A stretch of DNA of 64,000 nucleotides. It comes from an uncultured Acidobacteriota bacterium (lineage in GTDB: Bacteria > Acidobacteriota > Vicinamibacteria > Vicinamibacterales > CAVVIG01). Shown here piece after piece: positions 35,553 to 57,057 of the stretch. The DNA lies in assembly GCA_963761615.1 (NCBI GenBank), contig CAVXGU010000004.1:223537-287536 (forward strand), read 5' to 3'. The position numbers were made by a program, and so were the translations under genes. The notes below the pieces were generated by a model, which worked only from the letters and a program-made list of their open reading frames with translations, was not told where the DNA came from and searched no databases. Position 1 is the first letter of the stretch; every line of letters starts with the position of its first letter.

Positions 35553-36900
35553 CGCGATCGTCGCCTCCGGGCGCGGACGCCGGCCACTCCATCGGCACGA
35601 GGGCCTGGCAGAGCCATCCATCGAGGCGGCTCAGCCCGCGCGCCGCCGTCGTGAACGGTCCGACGATGACGCGGTCGAGCCACGCGTCGAGGAAGCCACG
35701 CTCCAGCGCGGCGAGAAACAGACGGTGGCGCAGCCGCTCCGGGATCAGACGGATCACCGGGCCTTCCCGCTCCTGGCGGTGACCGATGGCATCTTCCATT
35801 CCGTGCAGGTCGTGCAGGACGTTCGGAGCGCTCAGGAACTGCAGCAGCCGGAACGAGGCGTGCCCGACCAGATGGACGAACGCCACCACGTACCATCCGA
35901 TCGCGATCTCCACGACGATCAAGGCGACCTGGGTGAGGGAGGCATAGGCGAGCGACGACTTGACATCGCTCTGCACGCGGGTGGCGAGGCCGGCGAAGAC
36001 GGCCGTCGCCAGTCCCAGGGCGCCGGCCAGCACGCGGGCGGCCGGCGCCTGCTCCAGCAGGGGCGCCGCGCGCAGCAGCAGGAAGCACCCGGCGTGCACG
36101 GAGAGAGAGCCGTAGTAGACGGCGCTCGACGGAGTCGGGCCCTCCATCGCGCGCGGCAGCCACCCCGAGAACGGCAGCAGCGCGCTCTTGCCGGCCACGG
36201 CCACGATGAGGAGCACCGCGATGACCGTGGCATGCGCGCCGGTCAGGGCCAGCGCCTGGCCGGGCTTCGCGCCGCCGAACAGCAGCGAGAGGCTGTCGCT
36301 GCCGGCGAGGTGCCGCAGGAGGACCGCCGCCGCCAGCATCGCGGCGTCGCTCACGCGGTACACCGACAGCACCCGCAGCGCGTTCGACACCGGCGCCGGC
36401 CGCTCGTGGAAGAACGCCACGAGCAGCGCGGAGCTCAGGCCGACGAGCTCCCATCCGACGAGCAGCACCTCGACGTTCCCCGCCAGGGCGACGAGGAGCA
36501 TCCCGGTCACGAACATCGCCAGCAGCACGAAGTACCGGTTGTAGCCGGCCTCCCGGTGCAGGTACCGGTTCGAGAACGCCGAGACGACCCCCGCGATCAC
36601 GGCACAGAGCGCGGCGAAGCCGAGGGACACGCGATCGATCGAGAGCTCGATCGCGATGCCGCCGGCGTGACCCGTCGACCAGGCGCCGTACGACACGACC
36701 TGCGAGCCGCGGCCGGACACCCCGTGCACCACGAGCGCCGCGAGCAGGGACGCGCACGCGAGCGTCATGCTGGCGCCGGCCAACCTGCCGGTCCACCGCT
36801 CGGGGAGCGGCCGGTTGACGAGCGAGGCGCCGCCGAGCAGGAGGAACAGCGCTGCCGGCGACCCGACCCCGACGGTCACCAGCGTTGCGATCGGACTCAT
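35545..36900 (-). CDS. dabB: NuoL/MnhA-like proton-conducting subunit, DabB-type
   Basis: 451 aa starting at MSPIATLV. Motifs include GWELVGLSS and GKSALLPFSGWLPRAMEGPTPSSA. ATGA overlap with the upstream DUF2309 gene. Confidence 0.8.
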   Translation of the reverse strand: MSPIATLVTVGVGSPAALFLLLGGASLVNRPLPERWTGRLAGASMTLACASLLAALVVHGVSGRGSQVVSYGAWSTGHAGGIAIELSIDRVSLGFAALCAVIAGVVSAFSNRYLHREAGYNRYFVLLAMFVTGMLLVALAGNVEVLLVGWELVGLSSALLVAFFHERPAPVSNALRVLSVYRVSDAAMLAAAVLLRHLAGSDSLSLLFGGAKPGQALALTGAHATVIAVLLIVAVAGKSALLPFSGWLPRAMEGPTPSSAVYYGSLSVHAGCFLLLRAAPLLEQAPAARVLAGALGLATAVFAGLATRVQSDVKSSLAYASLTQVALIVVEIAIGWYVVAFVHLVGHASFRLLQFLSAPNVLHDLHGMEDAIGHRQEREGPVIRLIPERLRHRLFLAALERGFLDAWLDRVIVGPFTTAARGLSRLDGWLCQALVPMEWPASAPGGDDRDE

Positions 36901-39900
36901 CGCGCCCGTGCCGGCGAATCGGGCGGTGCGCCCGTGCGAGTCGGGTTCGACGCCGGCGCTGGAACGATGGCCACCGGAGCGAGGAATCCGCGCTTGCCCT
37001 GGTACCACGCGGCCGAATCGCCGACGACCGACGTGAGGGGACGTTCCGGCCTTCGGAGGACGAACCCCGAGGGGCCAAGTTCCCACAGCGCGCCCGAGTG
37101 GGGATCGAGACACGCCAGCCAGATCCAGCGGTTGCGCACCAGCCGATCGAGCGTCGCGTTCTCGCCGACGACGCGACCGACGCGATCGGGCGTGCCTTCC
37201 ACGACGATGGCGAGACGCGTGGGCTCGTGGATCTCGACCATCTGCCAGGGGAGCCCCGTGCGCAAGTCGCTCTGCGCGCCGTCCATCACGCCGAGGAGCG
37301 ACGTGACGTTGTGCGGCAGCTTCGTGCCGCAGCCGTAGCCGGATGGATCGACGTAGCTGAAGTAGTACTCCAGGTTGATCCCGGCCACGACCGGCACGAC
37401 CGCGGCCATCACGCGGGCCAGGACCGCGCCGTCGCCGTCCCGCGTCGGGTCGTACGACGACAGGAACGCGCGACGATCCAGGAACAGCCCGCGCGTTCGG
37501 GCACGCCGGCCGATGATGCAGAACGCGTTGGTGGCGTGGCCGTACTCCGGGCGCGGCTGCGCCAGGTCCGCGGCACGCCCCTGGACGTGAGCGAGCGCCG
37601 CGGCGGGCGGGTACCAGCGCGGCACCGCGTCGAAGCGGCGGCACCGCTCGTGGGCCTCGCGCCGCCTCGCGGTGTCGACGGCACGTGTCGCGCGCGCGAA
37701 GGCCTCGCGCCAGCGCGCGGGCACCAGGTCGTCGTCGTAATACGTCACCGTGTTGTCGCAGGTGTTGCGCTGGGCGCCGACGAACCAAGTGCCGTCGCCG
37801 ATCGCCACGCCCTCCGCCGCCAGCGCCTGGCGCACGCGTGGATCGTTGGCCATCTGGGCGAACGCGCGGGCGTTCGGCCCGCCGCGCCCGCCGCCGCAGG
37901 CGCCGCAGTCGTGGGCTGATTCGTGCGGGTTGTTCAGGCTCACCGATCCGTGTCCGAACACCAGCACGAGCGGGGAGAGGCGGCCGGCGATCCCGATGTC
38001 CTCCAGAACGCGACGCACGATGCCGGCCATTTCCCGGACGGTGAAGCCGGAGTAGCTGCCGATCGGCGGCCGGCGCGTGTCGCGGCTCAACTGCAGGCGG
38101 GTTCGCGGGGCAGGAAGCGGCGGCGTCCGCACGACGCTCCACCGGGAGGAGAGCCACGGGAACACGACGCGCAGGACCAGCGGGACGAGCGAGAGCCAGC
38201 CGAACAGCGTCATCAACAGCGCGCCGCGAACGGGCAGACGGCTCCCGGCGTGCACGTTGTAGCCGAGGAACCCGGCGGCCCGCCGGTGCAGACGCCTCGA
38301 GCGCCCCGGCAGCGCCTCCGGGGCTTCCTCGACTTCGGCGACGTAGTGCTCCGGGCGGATCGTCACCGGGCACAGCGGCCGCGGATGCGCGTCCGACGCG
38401 CCCTGGTGGTACATCGCGACGTTGAAGAAGCCCGGCGCGCCGAAGGTCTCGCACTGCGGCTCGACTTCCTCCAGATGGCGCCGGAAGGACTCCTCCCGCT
38501 CGTCGATGCAGAACACCGCCTGGAAGGCCGGCGTGGCGTCGACGGGCCGTGGCGCGTGATGCGCGAGGGCGTCGTACACCCGATGCCGAATCGTTCGCTC
38601 GAAGGCCTGATGCAGGGTCCGCCGGCAGAGGGCGTCGACCTCACCGAGCTCGGACTCGATCTCGGCCACCTGGCCCGCCGTCCACTGCGTCACGATCGAG
38701 GCGTCGACGCCGCAGAGCTGGGCGAGGTGAAAGAGCGGCCACGCCCGGTCGGAGGGCGTCGGCGACGCCGGACCGGGAAGTTCGTCACGGAGCCATGGAC
38801 GGAGCCCGGCCAGCGGGCCGTGAAAGGACACCTGCCGCGCCGCGTCGGCGAGCGCGGCGCGCTCGAACAGCAGGCGGACGGCGAGATATCCGCGGAGCGT
38901 GACCGTGAGATCGAGCGTCGGCACGCGGTCGGGCCGCTCTTCGATCTGGCGGACGATGCCCGCCCAGCCCCGCAGCGCCAGGAGCTCGCTGCCGAGATAG
39001 GCGTCGGCCTCGTCTTCCGCGACGCCGAGGTCGGCCAGGGAGTTCGCGAGCGAGTCGAGCGCGCCGCGTCCCGCGGCGTGGTCGTCGGCGACGAGGCGCG
39101 GCAGCGTCGCGGCCCATCGACCGCAGTGCGCGGCGAGCCCGGTGCGGTAAAGCTCCAGGAAGCAGCCGTGGATGCCGAGATGCCGGTCGGGCATCGTCCA
39201 CGGTGCCAGCCCCTGGTCGAGGTAACCCGCGAGGAAGCGGATGAGCGGCGGGTGGATCCAGGCGTCGGTGTCGAGGCGGCGCGTCGCCAGGAGCCAGTCG
39301 CGATGCCGGACCGGGGCGGCGCCGGGCGCGGCGGGCGGTGGGGTGCGGGCACGACCGGCCGCGTCGAGGCACGCACGCCAGAGGCGGCGCACGGCGTGCC
39401 GCTCGTCTCCGGGGAGTTCGGATGGATCGATCGCGTCGGTCAGGGCCGCCCTGGCGGAGGCCGGGAGATCCGGACGGAACCGCGACAGCGCGGCGGTCTC
39501 GTCGAGGATCCACTGGAGCTCCCGTCCGGTTGCGGCCGGGATGCCGTGCAGCACGACGGCACGCCAGAGATCGAAGCGGGTCCCGACGCCGGCGACGTCC
39601 TCCCGTCCCCCCGGGCCGAGCGCCTCCTCGAGGAGGGCGTCCACGTCCTCGACCAGAATGCGGCCCGAGGCGAGCTTGTCGCGGTATCGCCCCTCGGCGA
39701 GGAACGGCTCGCGCCCGAGGGTGATGGCGGCGTCGGCCACGGCCTCCTCGAAGGGCAGGTGCTCGAAGGCGTGCAGCGTGTTGTGATGGATGAAGATGCT
39801 GATCGGCCCCTGCGCCGGCAGCCGGTGGGCCAGACGGTCGATGACCCGGGCGATCGGGTGGTCGGACGGGCCCGCATCCTGCGGGCCGGCGTGGTCGGGC

Positions 39901-39902
39901 AT
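36897..39902 (-). CDS. dabA: DUF2309 (YbcC) family protein, DabA-type
   Basis: About 1001 aa. N-terminus GPISIFIHHNTLHAFEHLPFEEAV. Putative Zn-site motifs FCIDEREESFRRHLE and GHGS...NPHESAHDCGACGG, as in beta-CA-like DabA. The start is chosen at MPDHAGP (39902); an alternative at 39947 would lie inside the operator palindrome. Confidence 0.85.
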   Translation of the reverse strand: MPDHAGPQDAGPSDHPIARVIDRLAHRLPAQGPISIFIHHNTLHAFEHLPFEEAVADAAITLGREPFLAEGRYRDKLASGRILVEDVDALLEEALGPGGREDVAGVGTRFDLWRAVVLHGIPAATGRELQWILDETAALSRFRPDLPASARAALTDAIDPSELPGDERHAVRRLWRACLDAAGRARTPPPAAPGAAPVRHRDWLLATRRLDTDAWIHPPLIRFLAGYLDQGLAPWTMPDRHLGIHGCFLELYRTGLAAHCGRWAATLPRLVADDHAAGRGALDSLANSLADLGVAEDEADAYLGSELLALRGWAGIVRQIEERPDRVPTLDLTVTLRGYLAVRLLFERAALADAARQVSFHGPLAGLRPWLRDELPGPASPTPSDRAWPLFHLAQLCGVDASIVTQWTAGQVAEIESELGEVDALCRRTLHQAFERTIRHRVYDALAHHAPRPVDATPAFQAVFCIDEREESFRRHLEEVEPQCETFGAPGFFNVAMYHQGASDAHPRPLCPVTIRPEHYVAEVEEAPEALPGRSRRLHRRAAGFLGYNVHAGSRLPVRGALLMTLFGWLSLVPLVLRVVFPWLSSRWSVVRTPPLPAPRTRLQLSRDTRRPPIGSYSGFTVREMAGIVRRVLEDIGIAGRLSPLVLVFGHGSVSLNNPHESAHDCGACGGGRGGPNARAFAQMANDPRVRQALAAEGVAIGDGTWFVGAQRNTCDNTVTYYDDDLVPARWREAFARATRAVDTARRREAHERCRRFDAVPRWYPPAAALAHVQGRAADLAQPRPEYGHATNAFCIIGRRARTRGLFLDRRAFLSSYDPTRDGDGAVLARVMAAVVPVVAGINLEYYFSYVDPSGYGCGTKLPHNVTSLLGVMDGAQSDLRTGLPWQMVEIHEPTRLAIVVEGTPDRVGRVVGENATLDRLVRNRWIWLACLDPHSGALWELGPSGFVLRRPERPLTSVVGDSAAWYQGKRGFLAPVAIVPAPASNPTRTGAPPDSPARAR

Positions 39903-39917
39903 CGGCGAACGTGCAAG

Positions 39918-39935
39918 TATAGCAATATTGCTATA
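39918..39935. promoter_or_regulatory. perfect 18-bp palindrome TATAGCAATATTGCTATA in the dabA/arsR-like divergent intergenic region (candidate operator)
   Basis: The palindrome was checked by hand. It lies in a 51-bp AT-rich gap within an otherwise roughly 70% GC sequence, and TATACT/TATATT -10-like hexamers overlap it on both strands. Confidence 0.6.
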
Positions 39936-39953
39936 TTGCGCTATCATGCGGTC

Positions 39954-40349
39954 GTGTCGCGGGCGGCAGGGGCGGGCGGAGGGGCGGCCGGAGAGCTCCA
40001 GGTGTTCAAGGCGGGGTTCTTCCGCGCCCTCGCCCATCCCACCCGCATCCGAATCCTCGAGATCCTCGCGTCGGGCGGACGCACGGTGCAGGAGCTGCAG
40101 GACGCCTTGACGCTCGACCAGCCGCTCGTCTCCCAGCAGCTCGCCGTGCTGCGCAACCGCGGCATCGTCGCCGCGCAGAAAGAGGGGCCGTCGGTCCGAT
40201 ACGCCCTGCGGGACCCGCTGGTCGCCGACCTGCTGGACGTCGCGCGTCGCATCTTCAACAACCACCTGGTCAGCACGCGAGGGCTGTTGACCGAGCTGCG
40301 GCGCGAGGGCCGTCGGCGGCCGTCGCGGACACGACTCGCCCGCCGGTGA
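39954..40349 (+). CDS. ArsR/SmtB-family transcriptional regulator
   Basis: 131 aa from GTG 39954. Motif FKAGFFRALAHPTRIRILEILASGGRTVQELQDALTLDQPLVSQQLAVLRNRGIV. The protein contains no Cys. Confidence 0.85.
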   Translation: MSRAAGAGGGAAGELQVFKAGFFRALAHPTRIRILEILASGGRTVQELQDALTLDQPLVSQQLAVLRNRGIVAAQKEGPSVRYALRDPLVADLLDVARRIFNNHLVSTRGLLTELRREGRRRPSRTRLARR

Positions 40350-40554
40350 CGTGACCGGCACTTGACGCCCTGGGGACCGCGAGCGTATTCTGGCGGCCCT
40401 TCACGCCGGACCATCGGATATGGCGTCCACGTGGCGCTCGGGCGCCACAGCGGCGACTCGGCTTGCGGCCGCGGCCCCCTGGGGGCGCTCGAAGTCCAGG
40501 CGCGTCACCGTCCCACTCCTCGCACGACCCCAACCTGCACACAAGGAGCGCATC

Positions 40555-41910
40555 ATGCCGCGGAGGCTTTTGGTGCTCGCCGGGTCCGCGCTGTCGATCA
40601 CCCTGCTGGCTGGCAGCGGCTGCTCGAAGTCAGGGTCCTCCGGCGGCACGACGTCGCCGACGGCGCCGAGCTCGCCGACCACGTCGCTGACCGTCAACGG
40701 CGTCCACACGCTCACCGGCATCGGGCAGACGTATCAGCTCCAGACGAGCGACGCCTCCGGCAAGGACGTGACGTTCCTCGTGATGTATCAGTCTTCGAAT
40801 CCTGGCGTCGCGACCGTCGGCGCGGCCGGCACGACGGCGGGACTCGTGACGGCGGTCGCCAACGGCGTCACCCAGATCACGGCGAGCGAGGGCACGGTCT
40901 CGACCACGTTCTCGCTGACCGTCAGCGCGACCGCGGCGCCCTGGGTCGACGAAGGTCCTCGCTTCAGCAGCGCGGACTTCGGTGCGCCCGGAGACCAGTC
41001 GTTTGCCGATGGCGCCGCCATCCCCCTGCCGGGCGGCGGCCTCAGAATCATCTTCTCGCACGGGCTGCAGGCGTACCTGAGCGAGTCGTCTCCCGACGGC
41101 TTGGGCTTCACCCCGGACTCCGGAACGCGCCCGTTCGCGAATTCTCCCGACGGCCAGGCGAACGCACACCTGTCGCTGGTTCACGTGCTGCGACTCGACG
41201 ATGGCAGCGTAAGGCTGTTCGGATCGGCGCAGGGCGCGAACGCCGGCGAATACAGTGCCGTGAGTCAAGACGACGCGTTGACCTGGACCTATGACGACGG
41301 CGTGCGGCTTGCCGGCTCGGGATTCAGCGGCTTCAGCGTCGTTCGACAGGGAGGCCTCTATCGGGCGTACTTCGGAATGGGAGGCGGGACGGCCGGTCAG
41401 ATTTCCGGAGGGCCCGACGCGATCGTCAGCGCCACGTCATCCGACACCCTCAGCTGGACGATGGATGGCGGCGTCAGGATCGCGGCCGGTGCGAGCCCGG
41501 CCGGCGCGCCGGGCTCCCCGTACCATCCGTCGGCGATTCTCAACCCGGATGGGTCCGTCCTCCTGATGTACGTGCGCTTCCCGGACGGCGGGGCCGATCA
41601 CTCGACCTCGTACGGACTCTGGACGAGCACGTCGACCGACGGCCTCACGTTCTCCAACGAGACGTGGACGAACCTGCTCGGCTGCGCCGATCCCGAGCTC
41701 GTGCGAAGCGGCGGTACGCTCCGGGCGTACTACGACGGCTGCCCGAGCGGCACGTTCGGCAGCGCGCACCAGGGCGGCTCCGTTCCCTCCGCGGTCTTCA
41801 CGAGAACCAGCAGCGCACCCCCAGCCGTCCCACCCGCGCCGAGTCAGCCGACCGTGCCGCAGAGACCCGCGTCGGTGGTTCCGGCGTGGAAGGCGGTTCG
41901 GCAGCGGTAG
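40555..41910 (+). CDS. probable lipoprotein with a Big_2 Ig-like domain and a BNR/Asp-box beta-propeller region
   Basis: AAGGAG lies upstream of the ATG at 40555. Signal LLVLAGSALSITLLAGSGC. Big_2-like SSNPGVATVGAAGTTAGLVTAVANGVTQITA. Asp-box-like SQDDALTW, SSDTLSW and STDGLTF. Confidence 0.7.
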   Translation: MPRRLLVLAGSALSITLLAGSGCSKSGSSGGTTSPTAPSSPTTSLTVNGVHTLTGIGQTYQLQTSDASGKDVTFLVMYQSSNPGVATVGAAGTTAGLVTAVANGVTQITASEGTVSTTFSLTVSATAAPWVDEGPRFSSADFGAPGDQSFADGAAIPLPGGGLRIIFSHGLQAYLSESSPDGLGFTPDSGTRPFANSPDGQANAHLSLVHVLRLDDGSVRLFGSAQGANAGEYSAVSQDDALTWTYDDGVRLAGSGFSGFSVVRQGGLYRAYFGMGGGTAGQISGGPDAIVSATSSDTLSWTMDGGVRIAAGASPAGAPGSPYHPSAILNPDGSVLLMYVRFPDGGADHSTSYGLWTSTSTDGLTFSNETWTNLLGCADPELVRSGGTLRAYYDGCPSGTFGSAHQGGSVPSAVFTRTSSAPPAVPPAPSQPTVPQRPASVVPAWKAVRQR

Positions 41911-48791: not shown

Positions 48792-49973
48792 TCATGGACG
48801 CCGTCGAGCGTCGGCCTCTCTCCGGATCGATTGCCGGTATCGCCGGTACCGCCACCATGCCTGCCGCAGTGCATGCGCCCGCCTGGCCCGGCCGGCGGCC
48901 GCGGCCCAGGTGGCCGGCCGGCTCGCGCGCCACCAGAGAGCCGTTGCGACGTACCGCAGGCGGCTCGACGACCTGTCGAGGAGCAGCAGCGTGGTGCCAG
49001 CTTTCGTCAGGAAGTCGAGATCGAACAGCCCTTCCGTCGAGCTGAAGAGACGGTGTCTCGCGAGGGCCTCGACCCGCCGAGCGCCGGCGTCGCGCGGCCC
49101 GCGCTCCAGGAAGAAGGGAGGGACCGGCACGTCCAGGGCACGCGTGAGCGCGCCGAGCGGCGCCCAGAACGCCCGAGGCGCCCCCATGGCAGCGCTCCAC
49201 GGCAGCAGACGCGACCAGTCGAAGGCTGGTTCGCCTCGGAGAACGGCGAGCAGATCCCACGCCGTCTTCAGTCCGAAGGAGAAGAACGACGCGGAGGCAT
49301 GCACCATCGAGTGAAAGAGCAACGCCTGCGGTCCGGGCACCCCGAAGTCATCCGACGTGGCGACGGGACGTACGTCCTCGAGCAGACTGGCCTCCGGCAG
49401 ACCCCAGAACGCCGGCATCATCCGCGTGTGGATCTCGATGGCGGCGCCGTGGAACGCGATCGGCTCCAGATGGTGCGGCGCGCTGGGGCCCGCGTTCTCC
49501 GGTCCCTCGAATCCGCGCGCGAGGAGTCGGCTCCGCAGGACCGGCGCCAGATCGGGCTCGACGAGAACGTCGACATCCGACGTCGCCCGCGCAACGGCGC
49601 GTGCGGGCGCGCGCATGAGGAACGCGGAACCCTTGAGCAGCACGCCGCGTCCCCCGAGCTCCCGCAGGGCCGAGCCGACCTGCGCAATCGCGTCTCTCTG
49701 CGCGCGTTCGCGCACGAGATCGAACATCGCTCGTCGCGACAGGGTGTCGAGAAACGTCTCCGGAACGGACCGCCTCAGCACCGGCGCATTGAGGATGCCG
49801 GCAAGCGGCCGCGCCAGACCGCTTCCGCACAGACACTCGCCGAGGCGCTCCCAGTCCTGCCCGGCGCGGTCGAACGCAATCGCGGCCTGGGAATCGATCT
49901 CGAGATCCGGGTCGGATGCGAGGCGAACGAACCACCGGCACGCCGCGATCCAGGCGGCGTCCTCCGCGTTCAC
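48792..49973 (-). CDS. uncharacterised nucleotidyltransferase family protein (PF14907-like)
   Basis: 393 aa. VLLKGSAF...SDVDVLVEPD pattern of the nucleotidyltransferase fold. ATGA overlap with the upstream GT2 gene. Confidence 0.7.
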   Translation of the reverse strand: MNAEDAAWIAACRWFVRLASDPDLEIDSQAAIAFDRAGQDWERLGECLCGSGLARPLAGILNAPVLRRSVPETFLDTLSRRAMFDLVRERAQRDAIAQVGSALRELGGRGVLLKGSAFLMRAPARAVARATSDVDVLVEPDLAPVLRSRLLARGFEGPENAGPSAPHHLEPIAFHGAAIEIHTRMMPAFWGLPEASLLEDVRPVATSDDFGVPGPQALLFHSMVHASASFFSFGLKTAWDLLAVLRGEPAFDWSRLLPWSAAMGAPRAFWAPLGALTRALDVPVPPFFLERGPRDAGARRVEALARHRLFSSTEGLFDLDFLTKAGTTLLLLDRSSSRLRYVATALWWRASRPATWAAAAGRARRAHALRQAWWRYRRYRQSIRREADARRRP

Positions 49974-51109
49974 GACCGCGCCTGCGAGAGGTCGTCGGCC
50001 TCTGCGTCCGCCGCGGCGGGCCGGCCCGCCCGCGCCAGCGCGAGACGTTGCTTGACGACGTGAGCCGGGTTTCCCGGGTCGAGCGCGCAGGCCCGTGCGT
50101 AGTAGCGGGCGCTCTCGTCGTAGCGCCGCAGTTTGAACAGGCAGAGCGCGACGGCTTCGCTGGCGGCGGCGCCGAAAATCCGGACGTCGTAGGCGACCCC
50201 GTCGTCCGAGCAGTACGTCTCGGCGTCCGTGTTCGCGAGATCTTCGAGAACGGCGAGCGCCTCGGCGTATCGTCCGGCGTCGAGCAACCGCCGCCCCTGG
50301 AGCCAGCGGAAGAGACAGTCGTCTGGAAACCGCTCCAGCGCCTCGTCGAGGAGCGCGGGGTCAGCGGGGTTCGATCCGACCAGCAGCGACCCGTAGGGCA
50401 GGGCGTCGAGCGGACTCCGCACCCGGGCGGCCCGCACGATGTCGGTCGCCCGCCGCCACGCCGCCGTCGCGCCCGCGTGGTCCCCCAGGCCTTCGAGCAC
50501 CTGTCCGAGGTGATTCCACGAATAGACGTGGCCTGGATCCTGCAACAGCCGCGCCCGGAGCAGGGGGGCGTTCCGCGCGTGCTTGCGTGCCTGATCCCCG
50601 TCGTACCCGTAGTGGTCGAGTGCGAGGTCGGACGCGCCGATGCGCGTTCCGTCCTCGCGCATCACGGCGTGGATGTCGGGGAGCATCGTTTCGTGGATGA
50701 CGTTTCGGAAGCGGATGCGCGCGTCGTTCCGGAACAGGCGGCACTCGCGGTACTGGGTGAAGCCGGTTCGACACCGGAACTTCACGGTCGCAGCGACGAG
50801 GGCGGAGTCGTCCAGCGTCGCCGCCAGCGCGTCCCGGCTCAGAGGCCGCGCGCGCTCGTCGGCATCGATGTAGAGAATCCAGTCGCCGCGTGCGTACGAC
50901 AGGGCGGCGTTTCTGGCGGCAGAGAAATCGCCGTGCCAGGCCTCGTGAACGACGCGCGCTCCGAACCGGGCGGCGATCTGCGGGCTCTCGTCCGTTGACC
51001 CTGTGTCGACGACGACGATCTCGTCGACGAGTCCGTCGAGCGAGGCGAGGCAAGAAGGCAGCGTCGACGCCTCGTCGCGGACGATGAGGGTCGCGGACAA
51101 AGCCGCCAA
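49970..51109 (-). CDS. GT2 glycosyltransferase with a TPR-like C-terminal domain
   Basis: 379 aa. LSATLIVRDEASTLPSCLASL...EIVVVDTGSTD, DxD (YIDADE), and a helical-repeat C-terminus. TTG start inferred. Confidence 0.85.
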   Translation of the reverse strand: MAALSATLIVRDEASTLPSCLASLDGLVDEIVVVDTGSTDESPQIAARFGARVVHEAWHGDFSAARNAALSYARGDWILYIDADERARPLSRDALAATLDDSALVAATVKFRCRTGFTQYRECRLFRNDARIRFRNVIHETMLPDIHAVMREDGTRIGASDLALDHYGYDGDQARKHARNAPLLRARLLQDPGHVYSWNHLGQVLEGLGDHAGATAAWRRATDIVRAARVRSPLDALPYGSLLVGSNPADPALLDEALERFPDDCLFRWLQGRRLLDAGRYAEALAVLEDLANTDAETYCSDDGVAYDVRIFGAAASEAVALCLFKLRRYDESARYYARACALDPGNPAHVVKQRLALARAGRPAAADAEADDLSQARS

Positions 51110-51121
51110 CGACGTGGGGGG

Positions 51122-51322
51122 CTAGCCCGGGGAAGAAGGGAGTGTGATGTTGGACGCGGCCTGTGCGTGCACGTTGTACGCGGACACGCCCTTCATCGAG
51201 AAGGACATGACCAGCGGAGCCCCGAACGCCGTTCCGGCGACGAGCGCCTTCAGGAACGCGCGCTTGTTCGGGTCGACATGTTCCAGGGCTTTGTCGAGAC
51301 CGTCCTTGTCACTGGTCGCCAT
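51122..51322 (-). CDS. 66-aa small protein, candidate substrate/precursor peptide of the cluster
   Basis: ATG at 51320..51322 is preceded by GGGGGAG at 6 nt. GC3 is high throughout. Sequence: MATSDKDGLDKALEHVDPNKRAFLKALVAGTAFGAPLVMSFSMKGVSAYNVHAQAASNITLPSSPG. It starts 14 nt inside the end of the kinase gene and ends 12 nt before the GT2 gene. Confidence 0.5.
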   Translation of the reverse strand: MATSDKDGLDKALEHVDPNKRAFLKALVAGTAFGAPLVMSFSMKGVSAYNVHAQAASNITLPSSPG

Positions 51323-52188
51323 GTTCGCTCCCCCGCTGAAGCCGATTGCCGAGGACACATTCACGCACACAAGCGACAGCGGAGTCAAGGTCCCCGACGG
51401 TGATTTCGTACGCGGTGGCATGCCCGACGAGGGTTCCGACGTCACGAGCCCAGGCCCCGTGGCCCGCGTCCGGCGGCGCCGACTGCGCCAGCACGCGCTG
51501 AAGGGTCAGGGGTGTTGGGCACGGCTGGACGCGCGTCGGCCCGCGATGGTGCGGAATCAGGCAGAGGACCACGTCGACCGAACCGGGGGTGATTCGCCAC
51601 CGGAGGTCGAGCTCGGCAGGGTCGAATGCAAGCACGTGAAATCCCCCCGGCCAATCGGCCTCCGGTCCCTCCAACAGACGAGGCGCGAGCGCACCCACCT
51701 GCGGCACCAGTCGCAGCGTGCGGCGGCGGAATCCCGAATCGCCGGGGGTAGGCCACGGCCTCGCCGTCGCGCAGGAGGACCATCTCGTCGCCTTCGACGC
51801 CGCAGCCCTCGAAGAGCAGTCGCGTCATCAGCGTCGTCTTGCCCGCGCCCCGGTCGCCCACGACGAGGAACCGGCGGCCGTGCCACGTCCCGCAGCCCGC
51901 GTGAACCTTGGTGTAATCGGCGAGCGCATCGAGCGCGAGCTCGTGCAGCCGGCGGTTGACGAAGTCGACGGCCTGATCGACGTCGGGGAAGATCTCGGGC
52001 GCGCAGCCGTCTTCGCTCACCCGCCACCGGTCGCCGCCGCCGAGCGCGTGGAACGAGTGCCGGCGCGTCACCGGATGATCCTGTACCGCGCTCGGCATCA
52101 GCCGATCCAGACGCTCGACGAACGACGCGTCGTCCGTCGATACGAGGAACCCGCACGCCACGAGCTGGATCGAGCGCTCGAGTGTCAT
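51309..52188 (-). pseudogene. HPr-kinase-related protein (P-loop intact), apparent 1-nt frame disruption near 51728
   Basis: The N-terminal 153 aa (frame of 52188) contains GDRGAGKTTLMTRLL and ends ...AVAYPRRFGI. The continuation RRRTLRLVPQVGALAPRLLEG...VDVVLCLIPHH... is in the frame of ORF 51309..51707 and parallels the paralogue at 56176..57057. Confidence 0.75.
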
Positions 52189-52209: not shown

Positions 52210-52479
52210 TCAGAGCGGACGGATGAGACCCTCGTCGCGGAGTTTGGTGAGGCAGCTCTCGACTTCGTCGGTCGGTGCCGTGGTGAGGTCGTACGCGTTC
52301 TTCAGGGCGTCCACGATCGCGCCGGCGGCCAGGTGGCCGTCGCACATTTCGAACACCAGGACCGCGGTGCGATTGAGGTAGTGGACGCGGTCGGTCTCCT
52401 GTTGATAGACGATGTAACCGTCCGGCAGGTCGTTGACCTCGAGCCCGTCGGCTCTCTTCGGCACCCAGTTCCAGTCCAT
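52210..52479 (-). CDS. PqqD-family protein (RRE-like peptide chaperone)
   Basis: 89 aa. DGYIVYQQETDRVHYLNRTAVLVFEMCDG......IVDAL...YD......EVESCLTKLRDEGLI matches the PqqD pattern. ATG verified at 52477..52479. Confidence 0.8.
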   Translation of the reverse strand: MDWNWVPKRADGLEVNDLPDGYIVYQQETDRVHYLNRTAVLVFEMCDGHLAAGAIVDALKNAYDLTTAPTDEVESCLTKLRDEGLIRPL

Positions 52480-52513: not shown

Positions 52514-53824
52514 TCACACCAAGTCAACGGGGGGACCGGGCCGTTGCGGAGCTCCGCGCAGGTGTTCACGCACCAGGGCCGCCACCCGTCCGGCCACGAC
52601 GGAGGCGTCGTACGCCGAAGCCACCAGCGCAGCCGCCTCCCGCTGGATGCGCCGCGCGAGATCCGGCTCGCGCACGATCCGACAGCACGCGTCGGCGATC
52701 TCCGCGGGCCCCTCCGCCATCAGGAGATGCCGTCCCGCGACCACGTCGAGGCCTTCGGCGCCGAGAGACGTGGAAACCACCGGCACGCCACTGGCGAAGG
52801 CCTCGAGGATCTTGAGGCGTGTGCCGCCGCCCGCACGAAGGGGCACAACGGCGGCGTGGGCGCGCCGGTAGAACGGCGCCACGTCCTCGACGTCGGGGTG
52901 GACGGCGACGCCGTCGAGCCGGCCGAGCTCGAGCACGGTCGGGTCGGGCCGGGCGCCGATCAGGTCCACGTACGCGGCGGTGCCGAGACGCGCCCGAACG
53001 GCGGGAAGGATTTCTCGGCAGAGAGTGGTCGCCGCGTCGACGTTCGGGAAGTAGCCGAGCGAGCCGACGAAGACCAGGTGGACGCACCCGTCGGGTGTCC
53101 CCCCGAGGGCGCGGGCATCACGGGACACGCGAACGCCGTTCGGAACGACGTGCACCGACGGGTGACCCGAACGCGCCGCGACCGCCTCCCGGTCGCGCGC
53201 CGAACAGGTGAAGAGCGTATCGAACGACGACACCCACCTCGACTCGAGGATCCGGTACTTGTCGGCCTCCGCGGCCTCTGCGTCCGACGCGGCGATGTGC
53301 CCGAGCTCCGCGTGCCGCGCGGCGAGACGCCGCCGCGTCGAGACTTCGTCGTCGTCCAGATCGAGCAGGGCCAGGCGCGGAGAGGAGCAGGCCGCGACGA
53401 ACGGGGCGAGGTACAGCCGCATGACGAGCACGACGTCGAACGCCGGTCGGTCGGCGAACAGGTGCCGCGCCTCCTCGACATGGTCGCCGGCCGCCCGCGC
53501 GAGCGCCGGCAACAGGAACAGCTCTCGCAGAGTCCGAGAGTCTTCCCTGGGCGCGTCAGCGCCCGCCCGCGGATCGCCTCGGCCCGGTCTCGGCGGGAGG
53601 CACATCCGCTCGACGGTGCGGTCGACCAGGGCACGCGGCCACTGGTCCGGTGCCGGTCCGGACACCGGAACGACCATCAGCGTGACATCGCACTCCTGCG
53701 CCAGCGCCTCGAGGAGCACCGCGGAGCGCATGGCCAGCCCGTTGCCGGAATCGGCCGGTGTCGTGGGCGCAACGAAGAGGGCGCGGGGGCGTCGGCTCGA
53801 TCCCGCGGTCACGGCGTCGATCAT
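52514..53824 (-). CDS. GT-B glycosyltransferase (GT4-like)
   Basis: 436 aa. C-terminal half has GGTRLKILEAFASGVPVVST..GAEGL, the EX7E-region pattern. It abuts the upstream gene with no gap. Confidence 0.85.
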   Translation of the reverse strand: MIDAVTAGSSRRPRALFVAPTTPADSGNGLAMRSAVLLEALAQECDVTLMVVPVSGPAPDQWPRALVDRTVERMCLPPRPGRGDPRAGADAPREDSRTLRELFLLPALARAAGDHVEEARHLFADRPAFDVVLVMRLYLAPFVAACSSPRLALLDLDDDEVSTRRRLAARHAELGHIAASDAEAAEADKYRILESRWVSSFDTLFTCSARDREAVAARSGHPSVHVVPNGVRVSRDARALGGTPDGCVHLVFVGSLGYFPNVDAATTLCREILPAVRARLGTAAYVDLIGARPDPTVLELGRLDGVAVHPDVEDVAPFYRRAHAAVVPLRAGGGTRLKILEAFASGVPVVSTSLGAEGLDVVAGRHLLMAEGPAEIADACCRIVREPDLARRIQREAAALVASAYDASVVAGRVAALVREHLRGAPQRPGPPVDLV

Positions 53825-54586
53825 TCAGTCTTCCGCGTGACGGATCTCGAGATTGGGGAGACCCCAGCACTGATAGCCCATGTCATGGGCCATGATGCCG
53901 AGCCCTTCGGTATCCAGCTCTCCCACGACTTCGGTGACCCACGGGTTGGGATCGCGCACCAGGGGGCTGCGCCCGCCGTAGAGGTACGGCGGGAAGATCA
54001 GGCCGTCCCGGTGCGCGTCCGCGCGCACCAGCAGCATCGTGCCGCCGACCGCGTCCAGTCGTACGAGGTCGGGGCCTCCCCGCAGGTCCTCCATGTGGAC
54101 GCGGCCGTGGTCCCGCCACGCGTTCAGATCGAACGTCGGGCCGCCATACGTCCGCACACAGTGGGGATGGACGATGTCGCGCCCGACCGACAGCAGGCGC
54201 TCGATGATGCCTGGCGGGTACTCGACGACATCCGCGTCCAGCCAGAGCACCCAGTCCTCGTCGTCGAGGGCTCGCGAGAGCAGATGGTTCCGGCTCCTCG
54301 AGATCACCGCGCGGCGCGGAATCTGGATGATGGACGCCCAGCGCGGCAGGCCTCGCGGGATCTGAAAGCCGAAGTCGCGCTTCCAGAGGCGCGCCCGCCG
54401 GTACCGGCGCTGCAGGTCGGGCATTCGCGACTGCAGGGCGGCAAACGTGTCGTCCTGGCTGTCGCCCTCGAGAAAGCCGAGGGACAGACGGTCCGGCGGA
54501 TACGTCAGCCGCGCGAGCGAGTCGAAGTACGTGTCGAGACGCCTGGCGGCGTCCTTGATCACCGTGAGGACGACTACCGTATCCAT
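53825..54586 (-). CDS. GT-A glycosyltransferase resembling the fungal Mnn9/Anp1/Van1 (GT62) family
   Basis: 253 aa. VLTVIKDAARRLDTYFDSLARLTYPPDRLSLGFLEGDSQDDT...RR...SRSRNHLL...L.DEDWVLWLDADVVEYPPGII...DIV.P...FDLNAW parallels the Mnn9/Anp1 core as I recall it. No TM segment. Confidence 0.65.
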   Translation of the reverse strand: MDTVVVLTVIKDAARRLDTYFDSLARLTYPPDRLSLGFLEGDSQDDTFAALQSRMPDLQRRYRRARLWKRDFGFQIPRGLPRWASIIQIPRRAVISRSRNHLLSRALDDEDWVLWLDADVVEYPPGIIERLLSVGRDIVHPHCVRTYGGPTFDLNAWRDHGRVHMEDLRGGPDLVRLDAVGGTMLLVRADAHRDGLIFPPYLYGGRSPLVRDPNPWVTEVVGELDTEGLGIMAHDMGYQCWGLPNLEIRHAED

Positions 54587-54658: not shown

Positions 54659-56167
54659 GTGACGCTGCCGTCGCTGACCCAGGCACTCGCCGATCGTCTT
54701 CGGTCGCCCCGGCCCTACCCCGCCGAGCGATACACGGGGCGGGGCGTCGTCACCTGCGCCGGGGGGAGCCGCTACTTCACGTGCGCCTGGGTGCTCATCT
54801 GGGTCCTGCGGCGCGTCCTGCACTCGAGTCTGCCGATTCAGGTCTGGCACGCCGGCCGGAGCGAAATGAGCGAGGGCATGCAGCTCATCCTGGAAGAGGA
54901 GGGCGTGGAAGTCGTCGACGCGGACATCGTCGTCGCCGATCGGCCCGGGCGCGTCTGTGGGGGGTGGCCGCTCAAGCCGTACGCCATCGCGCAAAGCCGG
55001 TTCCGCGAGGTGCTCTTTCTCGACGCCGACGCCGTCCCGCTGGCCGATCCGGAGGCGGCGTTCGAATGGGAGGCCTATCGCCGCGGCGGACTTCTGCTGT
55101 GGCCCGACGTCCTCGACATCACGAGGGAGAATCCCGTGTGGAGCGCGCTTGGCCTCGAGGCGGCCGACACGATCAGCGCGGAGTCGAGCGTTCTCGCGAT
55201 CGACAAGGCCAGGGCGTGGGACGTGCTCGACGTCGCCGTCCTGCTCAACGAACACTGGGAGGAGCTCTACGAGCTGATCTATGGCGACAAGGACTCGTAT
55301 CTCCTGGCGGGGCGCCTGCTCGGGCGCCCCGTCGCGCTCGTCGCGTCACGGCCATTTCAGCTCGGCGATGATCTCGTCCAGCGCGACGAGCGCGGCGAGC
55401 CCTTCGTCCACCACCGCACGGGGTCGAAGTGGAATCTCTCCGGCGCCAATCAGCCGGTTGCCGATCCCGAGATCGACGCGGCGTGTCAGGTGGCCCTCGC
55501 GGAGCTCCGGCGCCGGTGGACGGGCGCCGTGTTCCATGCTCCCGCCCGCTCGGCGACCGCACGGGCGGTGGAGCGCGAGCTGATCGACGCCAGACGCTTC
55601 CAGTACTCGGTCTCCGGTCAGGCCCGAACCCTGGAGCTGCTGTCGGGGGGGCGCATCGGCGAAGGCCGGGGCCCCTGCGAACAGCACTGGGCCGTCGTCG
55701 GCGATCGCGAGCCTGCGCTCCAGCTGTTCTCGGACGTCCGCCTCACCGTCGGGCTGAGGCCCGATCCCGACGGGACGTGGCGCGGCGGCTCGGTGTGCGG
55801 GGATCCGTTCGACGCCAGGCTCGTCGCGGCGAGCGCGCCGACGACGTGGCCGCCGGAGCCGCGCGCGCGGAGTGCCGCGGATCACGTCGCGCCGCTTCTG
55901 GATCCGAGCCTGTTCGCGACCGGCTTCGACCCGGCCCTCGCGAGCGAGATTCGCGGGACGCTCACGCTGCTGAACCGCGTGTTCGACGATGTGGCGGAGG
56001 CGGTGGCGGGCTGGCTGCAGGCGCACCCGCCTGCGGAGCCCTGGCGGCGCGAGGTCGAAGCCATGCTGCCGCCGCTCGTGGAGGCCCGGCGGACGCGGCT
56101 CGTGCGGACGGGCGGCAGCGCGGGATCCACCGCGCTGGACTCGGTGCGCTACCGGAGGAACTCCTAG
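54659..56167 (+). CDS. GT-A glycosyltransferase resembling the Mnn1/Mnt (GT71, Mannosyl_trans3) family, with a roughly 230-aa uncharacterised C-terminal extension
   Basis: GTG start. GVVTCAGGSRYFTCAWVLIWVLRRV..SSLPIQVWHAG..E...WPLKPYAI..S.F.EVLFLDADAVPL.DPE..F....Y...G.LLWPD parallels the Mnn1-family core as I recall it. No TM segment. Confidence 0.6.
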   Translation: MTLPSLTQALADRLRSPRPYPAERYTGRGVVTCAGGSRYFTCAWVLIWVLRRVLHSSLPIQVWHAGRSEMSEGMQLILEEEGVEVVDADIVVADRPGRVCGGWPLKPYAIAQSRFREVLFLDADAVPLADPEAAFEWEAYRRGGLLLWPDVLDITRENPVWSALGLEAADTISAESSVLAIDKARAWDVLDVAVLLNEHWEELYELIYGDKDSYLLAGRLLGRPVALVASRPFQLGDDLVQRDERGEPFVHHRTGSKWNLSGANQPVADPEIDAACQVALAELRRRWTGAVFHAPARSATARAVERELIDARRFQYSVSGQARTLELLSGGRIGEGRGPCEQHWAVVGDREPALQLFSDVRLTVGLRPDPDGTWRGGSVCGDPFDARLVAASAPTTWPPEPRARSAADHVAPLLDPSLFATGFDPALASEIRGTLTLLNRVFDDVAEAVAGWLQAHPPAEPWRREVEAMLPPLVEARRTRLVRTGGSAGSTALDSVRYRRNS

Positions 56168-56175
56168 CAGGGCAG

Positions 56176-57057
56176 ATGCCGTACGAAGTGCTCGCCCGCA
56201 GCTCCTGCCGGCGGATCGTCTTCACGACGGGCGACCCGGCCGTCTGGTCCGCGGTGCGATACCTGGAATGTGACCCGGAGGTGGAGGCCCGCGGTCCGGT
56301 CGGCCTGGTGCGCGTCGGACTGGACCGCCACCGTGGCCGCCATCGCATCGCGCAGCCCGATCGCGAGCCTCGCGAGGAGCTGACGCTCCGCGAGGTCGTT
56401 CGGTATCTGGACGGCCGGCTGTTCGAGCAGGCGATGGAGGATTACCCCGGGGCGCCGGTGATCCGCGCGGCCTGCCTGCGCCGCCAGGGGCGCCGGATGC
56501 TGCTCCTCGGTCCCAACCGTGTCGGCACGACCGCGCTGGTGCTGCGCCTCATGCTGGCGGGGGCCGCGGTCGAGGGCGACGCGCACGTGTTCGCGCTCGC
56601 CGGCGGGGTGATTGCGCGACCGCGCGGTCTTCGGGTGAACGCCGGGGACGTTCCGCGCGTGCCCGAGATCGCCAGGGAGGTGCTGTCTGCGCCGTTCCAC
56701 GAAGACGGGCGCGGCGGACGGGCCTACAACCTGGATCCGCGGACCCTCGGGCGGCCATGGGAGATCCGGCACGGACCGGTGGATGTCGTCGTCCTGCTGA
56801 GGAGCAACCTTGGCGGCAGGTCGTCGATCCGTCCGATCGGACCGACGACCGTCGTTCGCGAGGCGATGTCCGCGTGCGTCATGCCGCGCGCCGGCCGCGG
56901 CGCCGCCGTGAGCGCGCTCGTCGCCGCCCTTCGGTCGGCGCGGGGCTTCGACCTCTCGTACGGCGACGACGAGGGTGCGCGCCGTTGCATCGAGGCGGCG
57001 TGCGACGGTCTGTTGGCCGCAACGGCGAGCCGCTATTTCCCCGTCAGCTCCCGGTAG
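56176..57057 (+). CDS. HPr-kinase-related protein paralogue with a degenerate P-loop
   Basis: 293 aa and collinear with the protein at 51309..52188. The P-loop position reads GPNRVGTTAL, with no Lys. ATG verified at 56176. Confidence 0.7.
   Translation: MPYEVLARSSCRRIVFTTGDPAVWSAVRYLECDPEVEARGPVGLVRVGLDRHRGRHRIAQPDREPREELTLREVVRYLDGRLFEQAMEDYPGAPVIRAACLRRQGRRMLLLGPNRVGTTALVLRLMLAGAAVEGDAHVFALAGGVIARPRGLRVNAGDVPRVPEIAREVLSAPFHEDGRGGRAYNLDPRTLGRPWEIRHGPVDVVVLLRSNLGGRSSIRPIGPTTVVREAMSACVMPRAGRGAAVSALVAALRSARGFDLSYGDDEGARRCIEAACDGLLAATASRYFPVSSR

Follow-up and report, generated by a model that had tools for sequence, protein, structure and literature searches.

A conserved small gene beside PqqD, HprK-like kinase and glycosyltransferase genes in an uncultured Acidobacteriota bacterium probably encodes the precursor of a modified peptide with a Tat-like leader

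The 66-residue open reading frame (ORF) at 51122..51322, minus strand, of a 64,000-nucleotide stretch from an uncultured Acidobacteriota bacterium (contig CAVXGU010000004.1, positions 223,537 to 287,536; hereafter the window, in whose numbering coordinates without a locus name are given) probably encodes the precursor of a peptide modification system that depends on a RiPP recognition element (RRE; RiPP, a peptide made on ribosomes and modified after translation). Judging from sequence comparison and from analogy with characterized systems, its leader would combine a signal of the twin-arginine translocation (Tat) type with an RRE-binding motif, and its short tail would probably be glycosylated or phospho-glycosylated near Ser57-Asn58, with the product then exported and clipped. 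The gene, comprising 66 codons and a TAG stop, is identified by its translation, its homologues and its conserved position in the locus, where it is accompanied by genes for a PqqD-family protein, an HprK-like kinase, a nucleotidyltransferase-like protein of the NTP_transf_5 family (PF14907) and a family 2 glycosyltransferase (GT) with TPR repeats (GT2-TPR).

The frame runs from an ATG at 51322-51320 to a TAG at 51124-51122, and its exact translation is MATSDKDGLDKALEHVDPNKRAFLKALVAGTAFGAPLVMSFSMKGVSAYNVHAQAASNITLPSSPG. The first-pass annotation, made from the letters of the window alone, had placed the ORF correctly with no strand given, and its description of the surroundings held in nearly every detail. 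The Shine-Dalgarno sequence GGGGGAG is present on the minus strand (51328..51334, read as 51334-51328), with a spacing of 5 nt (CGAAC) to the ATG instead of the 6 nt then counted; the third codon positions are GC-rich, GC at positions 1, 2 and 3 being 0.60, 0.46 and 0.84, the coding pattern of a 70% GC genome that the neighbouring genes show as well (window GC, 69.9%); the kinase frame stops at 51309 and so overlaps the start of the ORF by 14 nt; and the 12-nt gap to the TTG start of the GT2 gene at 51109 is right for those start choices, the public gene call for GT2 (376 aa versus 379 aa) starting a few codons later. The three-part layout that had been read from the peptide, with KRAFLK, a hydrophobic stretch, HAQA, N-I-T and two serines near the C-terminus, is likewise all present in the translation. 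High GC breeds spurious frames, and 112 ORFs of at least 50 aa lie in 18 kb, which would speak for a chance ORF between two real genes; that explanation was dropped, its probability being practically negligible, since conservation and synteny refute it: homologues from several phyla occupy the same operon position and an identical protein has already been called in public data, besides the good Shine-Dalgarno sequence and the third-position GC combined with a low position-2 GC. The ORF is thus a real, widely conserved gene, and it is the only member of its family in the 64-kb window.

Six close homologues (61-66 aa), obtained from a word-indexed search, have 34 invariant positions in common, all of them from M1 to N58. 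By running their profile against a library of 1.84 billion representative proteins, 349 matches were obtained at E ≤ 1e-3, and an alignment of 159 of these provided the column counts given below. The conserved part of the family is the N-terminal ~53 residues, while everything past an A-x-A site is hypervariable, bearing out the division into leader and tail that had been proposed from the single sequence. Four leader features, all encoded on the minus strand, were distinguished. The first element is an acidic helix-like segment, G8-D17 (51272..51301), with the consensus [DE]-x-x-[AV]-L-x-x-[VI]-D (D80/E43, L129, V91 and D98 of 159); the second is the Tat-like K20-R-A-F-L-K25 (51248..51265), with the family form (K/R)-R-x-F-(L/I/V)-(K/R)-(K/R), in which the second Arg is found in 159/159 members and the first position is R in 96 and K in 63. 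The third, F33-G-A-P36-L-V38-M-S40-F-S-M43 (51194..51226), lies inside the hydrophobic stretch and joins (F/Y)xxPx(V/I/L/M) to S-F-S-M (F139/Y12, P159/159, V106/I27/M19/L6, S149, F153, S118 and M131 of 159); its (F/Y)-x-x-P-x-(V/I/M/L) part is the most conserved block of the whole family, the form around it being L-x-x-G-(T/A/S)-A-(F/Y)-A-x-P-x-(V/I/M/L)-x-S-F-S-M-x-G-(L/V), and it is a candidate docking strand for the RRE (PqqD). The conserved leader is closed by the A-x-A-type (-3/-1) site V51-H-A53 (51164..51172), which resembles a signal peptidase I site and is the predicted cleavage site, with A101/V22 in column 49 and A103/S9/G8 in column 51, so that A/V stands at -3 in 123/159 and A/S/G at -1 in 120/159. 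The hydrophobic h-region of the window peptide spans L27-M43 (17 residues), followed by V-H-A/A-Q-A, and the family consensus of this region, LVVGTAFAVPVVASFSM, is moderately hydrophobic with A-x-A after it.

Conservation extends to the position of the gene. Among the kinase-anchored loci, i.e. L001, L003 and L005-L008 (kinase identity down to 32-36%) together with L009-L014 from GTDB genomes (hosts: an Acidobacteria bacterium, Vicinamibacterales, Rokuibacteriota, a delta proteobacterium and Syntrophobacteraceae), a precursor family member stands directly after the kinase in 12/12. The nearest named relatives of the window organism are metagenome-assembled genomes of Vicinamibacterales, Rokubacteria and Methylomirabilis. 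The three loci anchored on the glycosyltransferase, L124 (Casimicrobiaceae), L125 and L126, have the order PqqD-precursor-GT2-TPR in 3/3, and neither a kinase nor NTP_transf_5 was found within ±6 kb of them; the conserved small ORF at the equivalent position, which had been suggested as a check, is thus found from both anchors. A third anchor, the peptide itself, was used as the back-translated DNA pattern F-A-x-P-x-[VIM]-x-S-F-S-M-x-G, which gave 108 metagenome stretches, and 78 of the 80 listed encode a family member. Neighbours were counted only in loci with enough flank: among the peptide-anchored ones, PqqD lies upstream on the same strand in 30/32, GT2-TPR lies downstream in 40/47, and the kinase adjoins the precursor in 17/32 and is present anywhere in the locus in 19/32, and for loci flanked on either side by 3 kb or more the counts are 9/9 for PqqD plus GT2-TPR and 6/9 for the kinase. 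Two architectures recur, namely PqqD-kinase-precursor-GT2-TPR, with precursors mostly of about 57-120 aa, which is the type of the window, and PqqD-precursor-GT2-TPR, with long precursors of 180-250 aa. The synteny from the three anchors therefore defines PqqD, precursor and GT2-TPR as the minimal conserved set, to which the kinase (in about 60% of loci) and NTP_transf_5 (also in several of the kinase-containing loci) are an add-on module that is present in the window. The searches gave at least 349 clusters of precursors and at least 1488 homologues of GT2-TPR. By its conserved synteny, the peptide is the best candidate substrate of the adjacent PqqD, kinase, nucleotidyltransferase and GT2 proteins, as the first-pass annotation had suggested; the most constant enzyme neighbour is GT2-TPR, not the kinase.

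Two loci deserve mention for what they encode beside the precursor. In L125, an 88-aa ORF (L125:5725-5991) lies between precursor and GT2-TPR and has a classical Sec-type signal, then a middle rich in T/N and, at its C-terminus, a transmembrane segment with a basic tail; it is a possible second substrate, one without a leader. The cultured alphaproteobacterium Mesorhizobium microcysteis MaA-C15 (L015:5141-8699, NZ_VSZS01000064.1) has a related mini-system without GT2-TPR, in which a precursor-like ORF is directly upstream of the gene for a 405-aa protein that joins an HprK-like kinase to a PqqD/RRE domain at its C-terminus. This precursor reads ...TSRRRLLALMGLAATTAYVAPTLLSMDQAHA, followed by a Gly/Ser/Arg-rich tail, and contains RR, YxxPxL and AHA; next to it lies a divergent S8 protease, and the mini-system further includes an ECF sigma/anti-sigma pair.

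The tails past A-x-A comprise 3 to 183 residues in the aligned family, reaching >180 aa, and the six close homologues, which diverge or stop past S57-N58, end in SNITLPSSPG, SNTTIINPPG, SNIRLPG, SNLPD, SNFTQQ and SNF. Within this hypervariable part, S57-N58-I59-T60 (51143..51154, minus strand), of the form S-N-x-T/S, is a candidate modification site on account of the invariance of S57 and N58 in the close homologues and of an enrichment across the family. N-x-S/T within 15 residues past A-x-A was counted in 86/159 members, against 37.6±4.8 in shuffles, with a peak at tail positions +4/+5; the residue before the first tail Asn is Ser in 58/124 and the one at +2 is Thr/Ser in 69/124; and 100/159 members have S-N or N-x-S/T within the first ten tail residues. 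The N-x-T sequon singled out by the first-pass annotation is accordingly a feature of the family, not an invariant of its closest members, among which P0003, P0004 and P0006 have S-N and no sequon. An enrichment of N-x-S/T right past the predicted cleavage site, with Asn as the most recurrent tail residue and many GTs in the cluster, would also be expected if the sequon were used only after export, by periplasmic N-glycosylation through a PglB-type oligosaccharyltransferase, the cluster GTs building its lipid-linked glycan. We regard this as very improbable: no oligosaccharyltransferase, flippase or polyprenyl-phosphate GT is recognised in the cluster, the cytoplasmic PqqD, kinase and NTP_transf_5 would be left without a role, Ser directly ahead of Asn is enriched to the same degree as Thr/Ser at +2, and the three sequon-free homologues keep S-N all the same.

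Which tail residue would be modified can be approached by comparison with the linear polyphosphorylated peptides (LPPs), whose clusters encode an RRE, an HprK-like kinase and an NTP transferase (Popov et al., Nat Commun 2026; PMC13381572). In LPP precursors (35-200 aa), the N-terminus is conserved as YxxPxVLxHQxIxFETxxS and the C-terminus varies; within the core AQS*NWK it is Ser3 that their kinase polyphosphorylates, their leader protease is of signal-peptidase type (SipW-like), an MsbA-like pump is found in the clusters, and the family is described as Bacillota-restricted, while discrete lasso RREs bind the motif [Y/W]xxPx[L/V/I/F/A] (PMC13381572). The window cluster similarly has a discrete PqqD-type RRE and an HprK-like kinase; its NTP_transf_5 protein may correspond to LppN of LPPs (PMC13381572) and to PsmN of pseudomycoidin (PMC6993621), a likeness by description, both being described as uncharacterised NTP transferases with no Pfam family named. 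Further likenesses are a conserved leader before a variable C-terminus (in precursors of 57 to >400 aa in the present family), an aromatic-x-x-P-x-V leader motif, a modified or candidate Ser 3-4 residues past the cleavage site and followed by Asn (AQS*N in LPP, QAAS-N in the window), with S-N 3-5 residues past the predicted site in the present family, a leader removal that would here, too, be tied to signal-peptidase-type chemistry, and GT-rich loci. By analogy to LPP Ser3 in AQS*N, and as the sole tail Ser/Thr common to all six close homologues, Ser57 is the best candidate for the acceptor in the window, with Ser63/64 and Thr60 as alternatives.

There are also differences from LPPs. Neither the window nor most of the related loci have a SipW-like peptidase or an MsbA-like pump; the leader is Tat-signal-like, has Phe for Tyr (139/159) and no HQxIxFET; the partner retained most often is GT2-TPR, and about 40% of loci do without the kinase; and the hosts are Acidobacteriota, Methylomirabilota, Rokubacteria, Desulfobacterota and Beta-/Alphaproteobacteria instead of Bacillota. 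Since peptidase, pump, leader motif and taxon all differ, the present family is not the LPP family as defined. A straight LPP-type system, in which kinase (poly)phosphorylation of a tail Ser defines the class, NTP_transf_5 acts on the phosphate and the GTs build an unrelated polysaccharide, is nevertheless what the trio of RRE, HprK-like kinase and NTP_transf_5, the precursor architecture and the S-N past the cleavage site (as in AQS*NWK) would lead one to expect, and LPP clusters likewise sit in GT-rich capsule loci. The tails also bear on this, for a Ser is found among the last six residues in 38/51 kinase-adjacent precursors versus 4/12 in kinase-free loci, and the kinase-adjacent tails of at least 18 aa have a near-C-terminal Ser in 18/28, against 11.8±2.4 in shuffled ones (P about 0.008, related sequences overstating the independence of the counts). 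Yet about 40% of loci, including three with ±6 kb of flank, keep PqqD-precursor-GT2-TPR without a kinase; GT2-TPR is joined to the 3′ end of the precursor gene and resembles GmaR and SunS, not polysaccharide synthases; and the frequency of S-N and N-x-S/T is no different in loci with a kinase from that in loci lacking one, and the motif may therefore be a property of the GT2-TPR/RRE core. We therefore consider a straight LPP-type system rather unlikely.

The first-pass annotation had looked for the kinase site at the C-terminal serines. The segment concerned, P62-S-S-P-G66 (51125..51139, minus strand), is the variable C-terminus and an alternative kinase site; it is not conserved in the six close homologues, and what survives of the proposal is the enrichment of near-C-terminal Ser in distant kinase-linked members. 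A subfamily in L022, L023, L041, L058, L060, L067, L069, L080, L081, L106, L110, L113 and L115 lies next to a kinase gene in every case with enough flank to judge and has Gly/Pro-rich tails without S-N-x-T; these end in PP(V/I/A)SP-type sequences or in a terminal Ser, and such endings suggest that the kinase site is here another one, at the C-terminus, as in paeninodin-type lasso peptides. In L020, L025, L070 and L084, two or three tandem precursors with near-identical leaders and different tails were observed, such as the three 59-62-aa copies of L070 that end in AFAGNTSVSDK, AFAGNMTVSYR and AFAGNVSFSVITMN.

In Tat signal peptides, a long n-region is followed by (K/R)R-x-F-L-K, by an h-region of moderate hydrophobicity and by A-x-A, and the Tat proofreading chaperones TorD, DmsD and NapD are small cytoplasmic proteins that bind the signal until maturation is done. 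The precursor leader has the same succession of long n-region, (K/R)R-x-F-L-K, moderate h-region and A-x-A, and it could be bound until maturation is done, as in the Tat chaperone pairs, by the small cytoplasmic protein of an adjacent gene; unlike TorD/NapD, this putative leader binder is an RRE (PqqD fold). Tat-related models match among 53 family members, i.e. TIGR02811 in 29, TIGR01409 in 8 and PF10518 in 8, with best E-values of 3.8e-5 (TIGR01409) and 0.002 (PF10518), and 13/53 match the Tat-dependent Rieske protein SoxL2. Membership in TIGR02811, the 'formate dehydrogenase region TAT target' family, was considered and set aside: only the shared Tat-like part is covered, the window peptide has no match, and a formate dehydrogenase context is lacking. 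Longer members carry, after this shared N-terminal module, PEP-CTERM, DUF11/CARDB-like, Peptidase_S74 or pentapeptide domains or T-/N-rich low complexity. The members P0180, P0187, P0168 and the L124 precursor have PEP-CTERM or another anchor only and no other signal peptide; such anchor-bearing proteins must cross the membrane without another signal, which supports an export function of the leader.

An ordinary exported mini-protein or membrane-anchored peptide that stays unmodified, with PqqD acting as its signal-peptide chaperone in the manner of TorD/NapD, or else a structural or regulatory subunit of the GT machinery, would have just this signal-peptide-like layout and these Tat model matches, and it would have the leader, not the tail, as its most conserved part; a small Tat-signal-only family, TIGR02811, does exist, with 29/53 members matching. 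Such a peptide is hard to reconcile with the 3-13 residues that would be left after A-x-A cleavage in many members, with one leader on cargoes as different as PEP-CTERM, DUF11, S74 and pentapeptide proteins, and with the position-specific S-N-x-T/S enrichment in the tail. Moreover, the h-region, with its invariant Pro and S-F-S-M, is far more conserved than generic signal peptides are, and PqqD-family proteins of known function are peptide-presenting RREs for modifying enzymes. On balance, an unmodified peptide is quite improbable. Modification substrate and Tat signal had been put forward earlier as alternatives for the ORF; they need not be, as the same 53 residues resemble both a signal peptide and an RRE-binding leader.

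Some of the cargoes are observations in their own right. P0180, P0187, P0168 and the L124 precursor (L124:5692-5967) are mini-precursors made up only of the leader, about 8-15 residues with S-N or N-Q-T, and a PEP-CTERM/IPTL-like sorting signal, which hints at a modified tag handed to an exosortase-type system. In the long-form members of L011 (L011:957-1562) and P0130, P0132, P0145, P0200, P0214 and P0230, the leader is fused to Peptidase_S74, an endosialidase intramolecular chaperone and a cargo that one would not expect behind a RiPP-like leader. In L001 (L001:3527-7943), tatC and two MsbA-like ABC exporter genes are found a short way upstream of the PqqD operon, with one opposite-strand gene in between. 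Across the loci, no consistent TatC linkage was found, nor was one for ABC exporters, homologues of the L001 pair lying near only 6 of about 125 loci.

For the modified-precursor reading that we prefer, a mechanism of four steps can be proposed. PqqD would first bind the leader through the G-T-A-F-x-x-P-x-V-x-S-F-S-M strand (F33-M43), and the bound peptide would then be shown to GT2-TPR, which would glycosylate S-N-x-T/S just past A-x-A; in the window, Ser57 or Thr60 would be the acceptor and Asn58 a recognition residue or, less likely, the acceptor itself. In a third step, which applies to clusters like that of the window, the kinase would (poly)phosphorylate a Ser, best Ser57 and alternatively Ser63/64, NTP_transf_5 would place a hexose on the phosphate, the part that PsmN plays in pseudomycoidin, and further elongation of the glycan may fall to the additional GT4, Anp1 and mannosyltransferase genes. 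For pseudomycoidin, the Ser is known to be polyphosphorylated by the kinase, with PsmN needed for one or two hexoses on the phosphate (PMC6993621). Finally, the leader would serve as a Tat-type signal, so that the decorated product is exported by general machinery and cut by signal peptidase I at V-H-A↓Q, releasing in the window a 13-residue (Q54-G66) phospho/glyco-peptide. A leader doubling as export signal would explain clusters without the SipW-like peptidase and MsbA-like pump of LPP. The role of the product may be linked to the cell surface or to exopolysaccharide, because some relatives carry PEP-CTERM anchors. A more specific version holds that a bona fide Tat signal has been recruited as a RiPP leader with the RRE strand placed in its h-region, PqqD both presenting the substrate to GT2-TPR, and optionally to the kinase/NTP-transferase phospho-glycosylation module, and masking the export signal until modification is done, with Tat export and trimming by the housekeeping signal peptidase to follow, and that this is a phylogenetically broad class; we put it forward as a tentative possibility, and would not expect it to hold in full.

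Several observations weigh against the preferred reading. On the side of export, the window peptide has no match to TIGR01409, PF10518 or any curated model even at E ≤ 1, so the Tat-like leader named by the first-pass annotation stands for the family, through its matches to TIGR01409, PF10518 and TIGR02811, and not for this KR-bearing member; its motif reads N-K-R-A-F-L-K in place of S/T-R-R-x-F-L-K. KR, uncommon in genuine Tat signals, is found in 63/159 members (40%), most c-regions have Asp and not a basic residue, the h-region is unusually constrained in sequence for a textbook Tat signal, the cargo may be as short as 3-13 residues, and TatC is linked in L001 only. As for leader binding, the RRE-type motif has Phe where lasso and LPP leaders have Tyr/Trp, the Tyr hydroxyl of the LPP leader matters for RRE binding (PMC13381572), and, compared with LPP, about 5 more residues separate the motif from the cleavage site. 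With regard to modification, S-N-x-T/S is missing in roughly a third of members, the PP(V/I/A)SP/terminal-Ser subfamily has its Gly/Pro-rich tails in the place of this motif, the kinase gene of the window is frameshifted in this assembly, though intact in an independent one, and we infer the acceptor, the sugar and the action of GT2-TPR on the peptide from neighbourhood and remote homology.

The partner genes occupy both sides of the ORF, on the minus strand unless stated otherwise. The HprK-like P-loop kinase (kinase A, 51309..52188) has an unbroken frame of 292 aa in L002, a Logan assembly that is independent, represents the same organism and is 99.95% identical; compared with L002, one extra T near 51730 splits it here into ORFs of 248 aa and 132 aa, a break that the first-pass annotation had missed. 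The extra T is probably an assembly or consensus error, and could also reflect a real pseudogene or strain heterogeneity. The best NCBIfam match of kinase A is TIGR04352 (HprK_rel_A; 1.9e-6, 27.2 bits versus a cut-off of 200), and its AlphaFold2 (AF2) model, with a predicted local distance difference test (pLDDT) score of 90.8, matches only the folds of PEPCK and HprK/P. Upstream follows the 89-aa PqqD-family RRE (52210..52479; Pfam PqqD, 1.6e-9), for which TIGR04353 (29.7 bits versus a cut-off of 35) is level with TIGR03859 as top match; its single-sequence AF2 model has a pLDDT of 51.9, too poor for a fold search, with the element order β-β-β-α-α-α, and a search of PDB sequences gave only a marginal match to TfuB1 (E=0.53). 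On the other side of the ORF, GT2-TPR (49970..51109) combines Pfam Glycos_transf_2 (2.7e-20) with TPR and matches the SunS family (1.9e-16; 60 bits against TIGR04195, cut-off 350), its nearest solved structures being GmaR (2.3e-25) and SunS (3.5e-13; SunS/ThuS ~1e-13), and NTP_transf_5 (48792..49973; Pfam, 6.1e-24) holds the same position in L001, L003 and L007.

Two further GTs belong to the same operon. The GT4-type enzyme (52514..53824; Glyco_trans_1_4, 3.1e-21) matches the PEP-CTERM/XrtA-system GT TIGR03087 at 1.6e-37, under the cut-off, and recurs beside PqqD in many loci, and the Anp1-like (GT62-like) enzyme (53825..54586; Pfam Anp1, 1.9e-45) recurs in L005, L032, L036, L059, L061, L071, L086 and L125. 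Divergently encoded on the plus strand are a Mannosyl_trans3-family GT (54659..56167; Pfam, 6.1e-25) and a paralogue of kinase A (56176..57057; BLASTP 3e-22, 28% identity; 164 bits against the kinase HMM), in which Walker A GxxGxGKT is degraded to GPNRVGTT (GPNRVGTTAL) and HAG is changed to RAA, and which from these residues is likely a pseudokinase. All coding space in 48.8-57.1 kb is assigned to families other than a SipW-like peptidase, and no genes for a signal peptidase (SipW-like), an MsbA-type pump, TatC, or a lasso cyclase (C) or B2 peptidase were found in the window. The flanking genes are unrelated, i.e. beta-lactamase-family, YidB, DabA, metallo-beta-lactamase-fold, MacB/FtsX, DUF4159, VTT-domain and radical SAM genes; at 34128-40733, minus strand, DabA (PF10070, E 1e-227) lies ~1.3 kb from a Proton_antipo_M gene, the two forming a DAB-type inorganic carbon uptake pair that is unrelated to the present system.

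Besides LPPs, other known systems share parts of this cassette. The phospho-lasso peptides paeninodin and pseudomycoidin (PMC6993621) have an HprK-like kinase, an RRE-bound precursor and an NTP-transferase-family protein as well. In contrast to them, the window cluster encodes neither C nor B2, so the product must be linear; the reading as a lasso precursor was dropped for the same lack. Lasso kinases act on a C-terminal Ser, which is not conserved in the window clade. GT2-TPR, a GT2 catalytic domain with helical/TPR repeats, is closest to the peptide- or protein-directed enzymes SunS, ThuS and GmaR, whereas glycocin precursors are Cys-rich helical hairpins with double-glycine (GG) leaders, peptidase-ABC exporters and no need of an RRE; Cys and a GG motif are both lacking in the window peptide, the cluster has no exporter and the GT scores below the SunS cut-off, so glycocin membership was rejected and the GT analogy kept. 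The NCBIfam HPr-rel-A system (TIGR04352, kinase A; TIGR04353, PqqD-family chaperone; TIGR04355, kinase B) is the best named family for 6/6 kinase-A-type proteins, and its pair of kinase A and kinase B is called to mind by the second, degenerate kinase paralogue of the window; the scores below the curated cut-offs (27.2 versus 200 and 29.7 versus 35 bits) mean that these proteins are not HPr-rel-A equivalogs. Our literature search returned no published substrate for the HPr-rel-A system, no description of the present precursor family or of Tat-type RiPP leaders, and no precursor or substrate role for PF14907-linked clusters, the single PF14907 match being a phosphonate-biosynthesis inventory. 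Taken by analogy, the present system looks like an undescribed variant of LPP/phospho-lasso tailoring combined with a peptide glycosyltransferase of glycocin/GmaR type.

The precursor family gives a missing substrate candidate for the orphan PqqD/HprK-like/NTP_transf_5/GT2-TPR cassettes of poorly studied soil and sediment phyla, offers a handle on the function of PF14907, and would carry the LPP logic beyond Bacillota. Candidate residues can be named by function, i.e. F33/P36/V38 for RRE binding, K20R21 for Tat and S57/N58/T60 for modification, and L015 of the cultured Mesorhizobium microcysteis MaA-C15 provides an experimental entry point. A leader that doubles as a signal peptide suggests a pump- and protease-free exit for cytoplasmically modified peptides in Gram-negative bacteria. 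If the tentative Tat-leader version is true, the outcome would be short phospho/glyco-peptides or glycosylated surface proteins, some of them passed to exosortase via PEP-CTERM; and if it is true that an RRE-guided GT2-TPR takes diverse cargoes behind one leader, the module would constitute a portable peptide/protein glycosylation tag.

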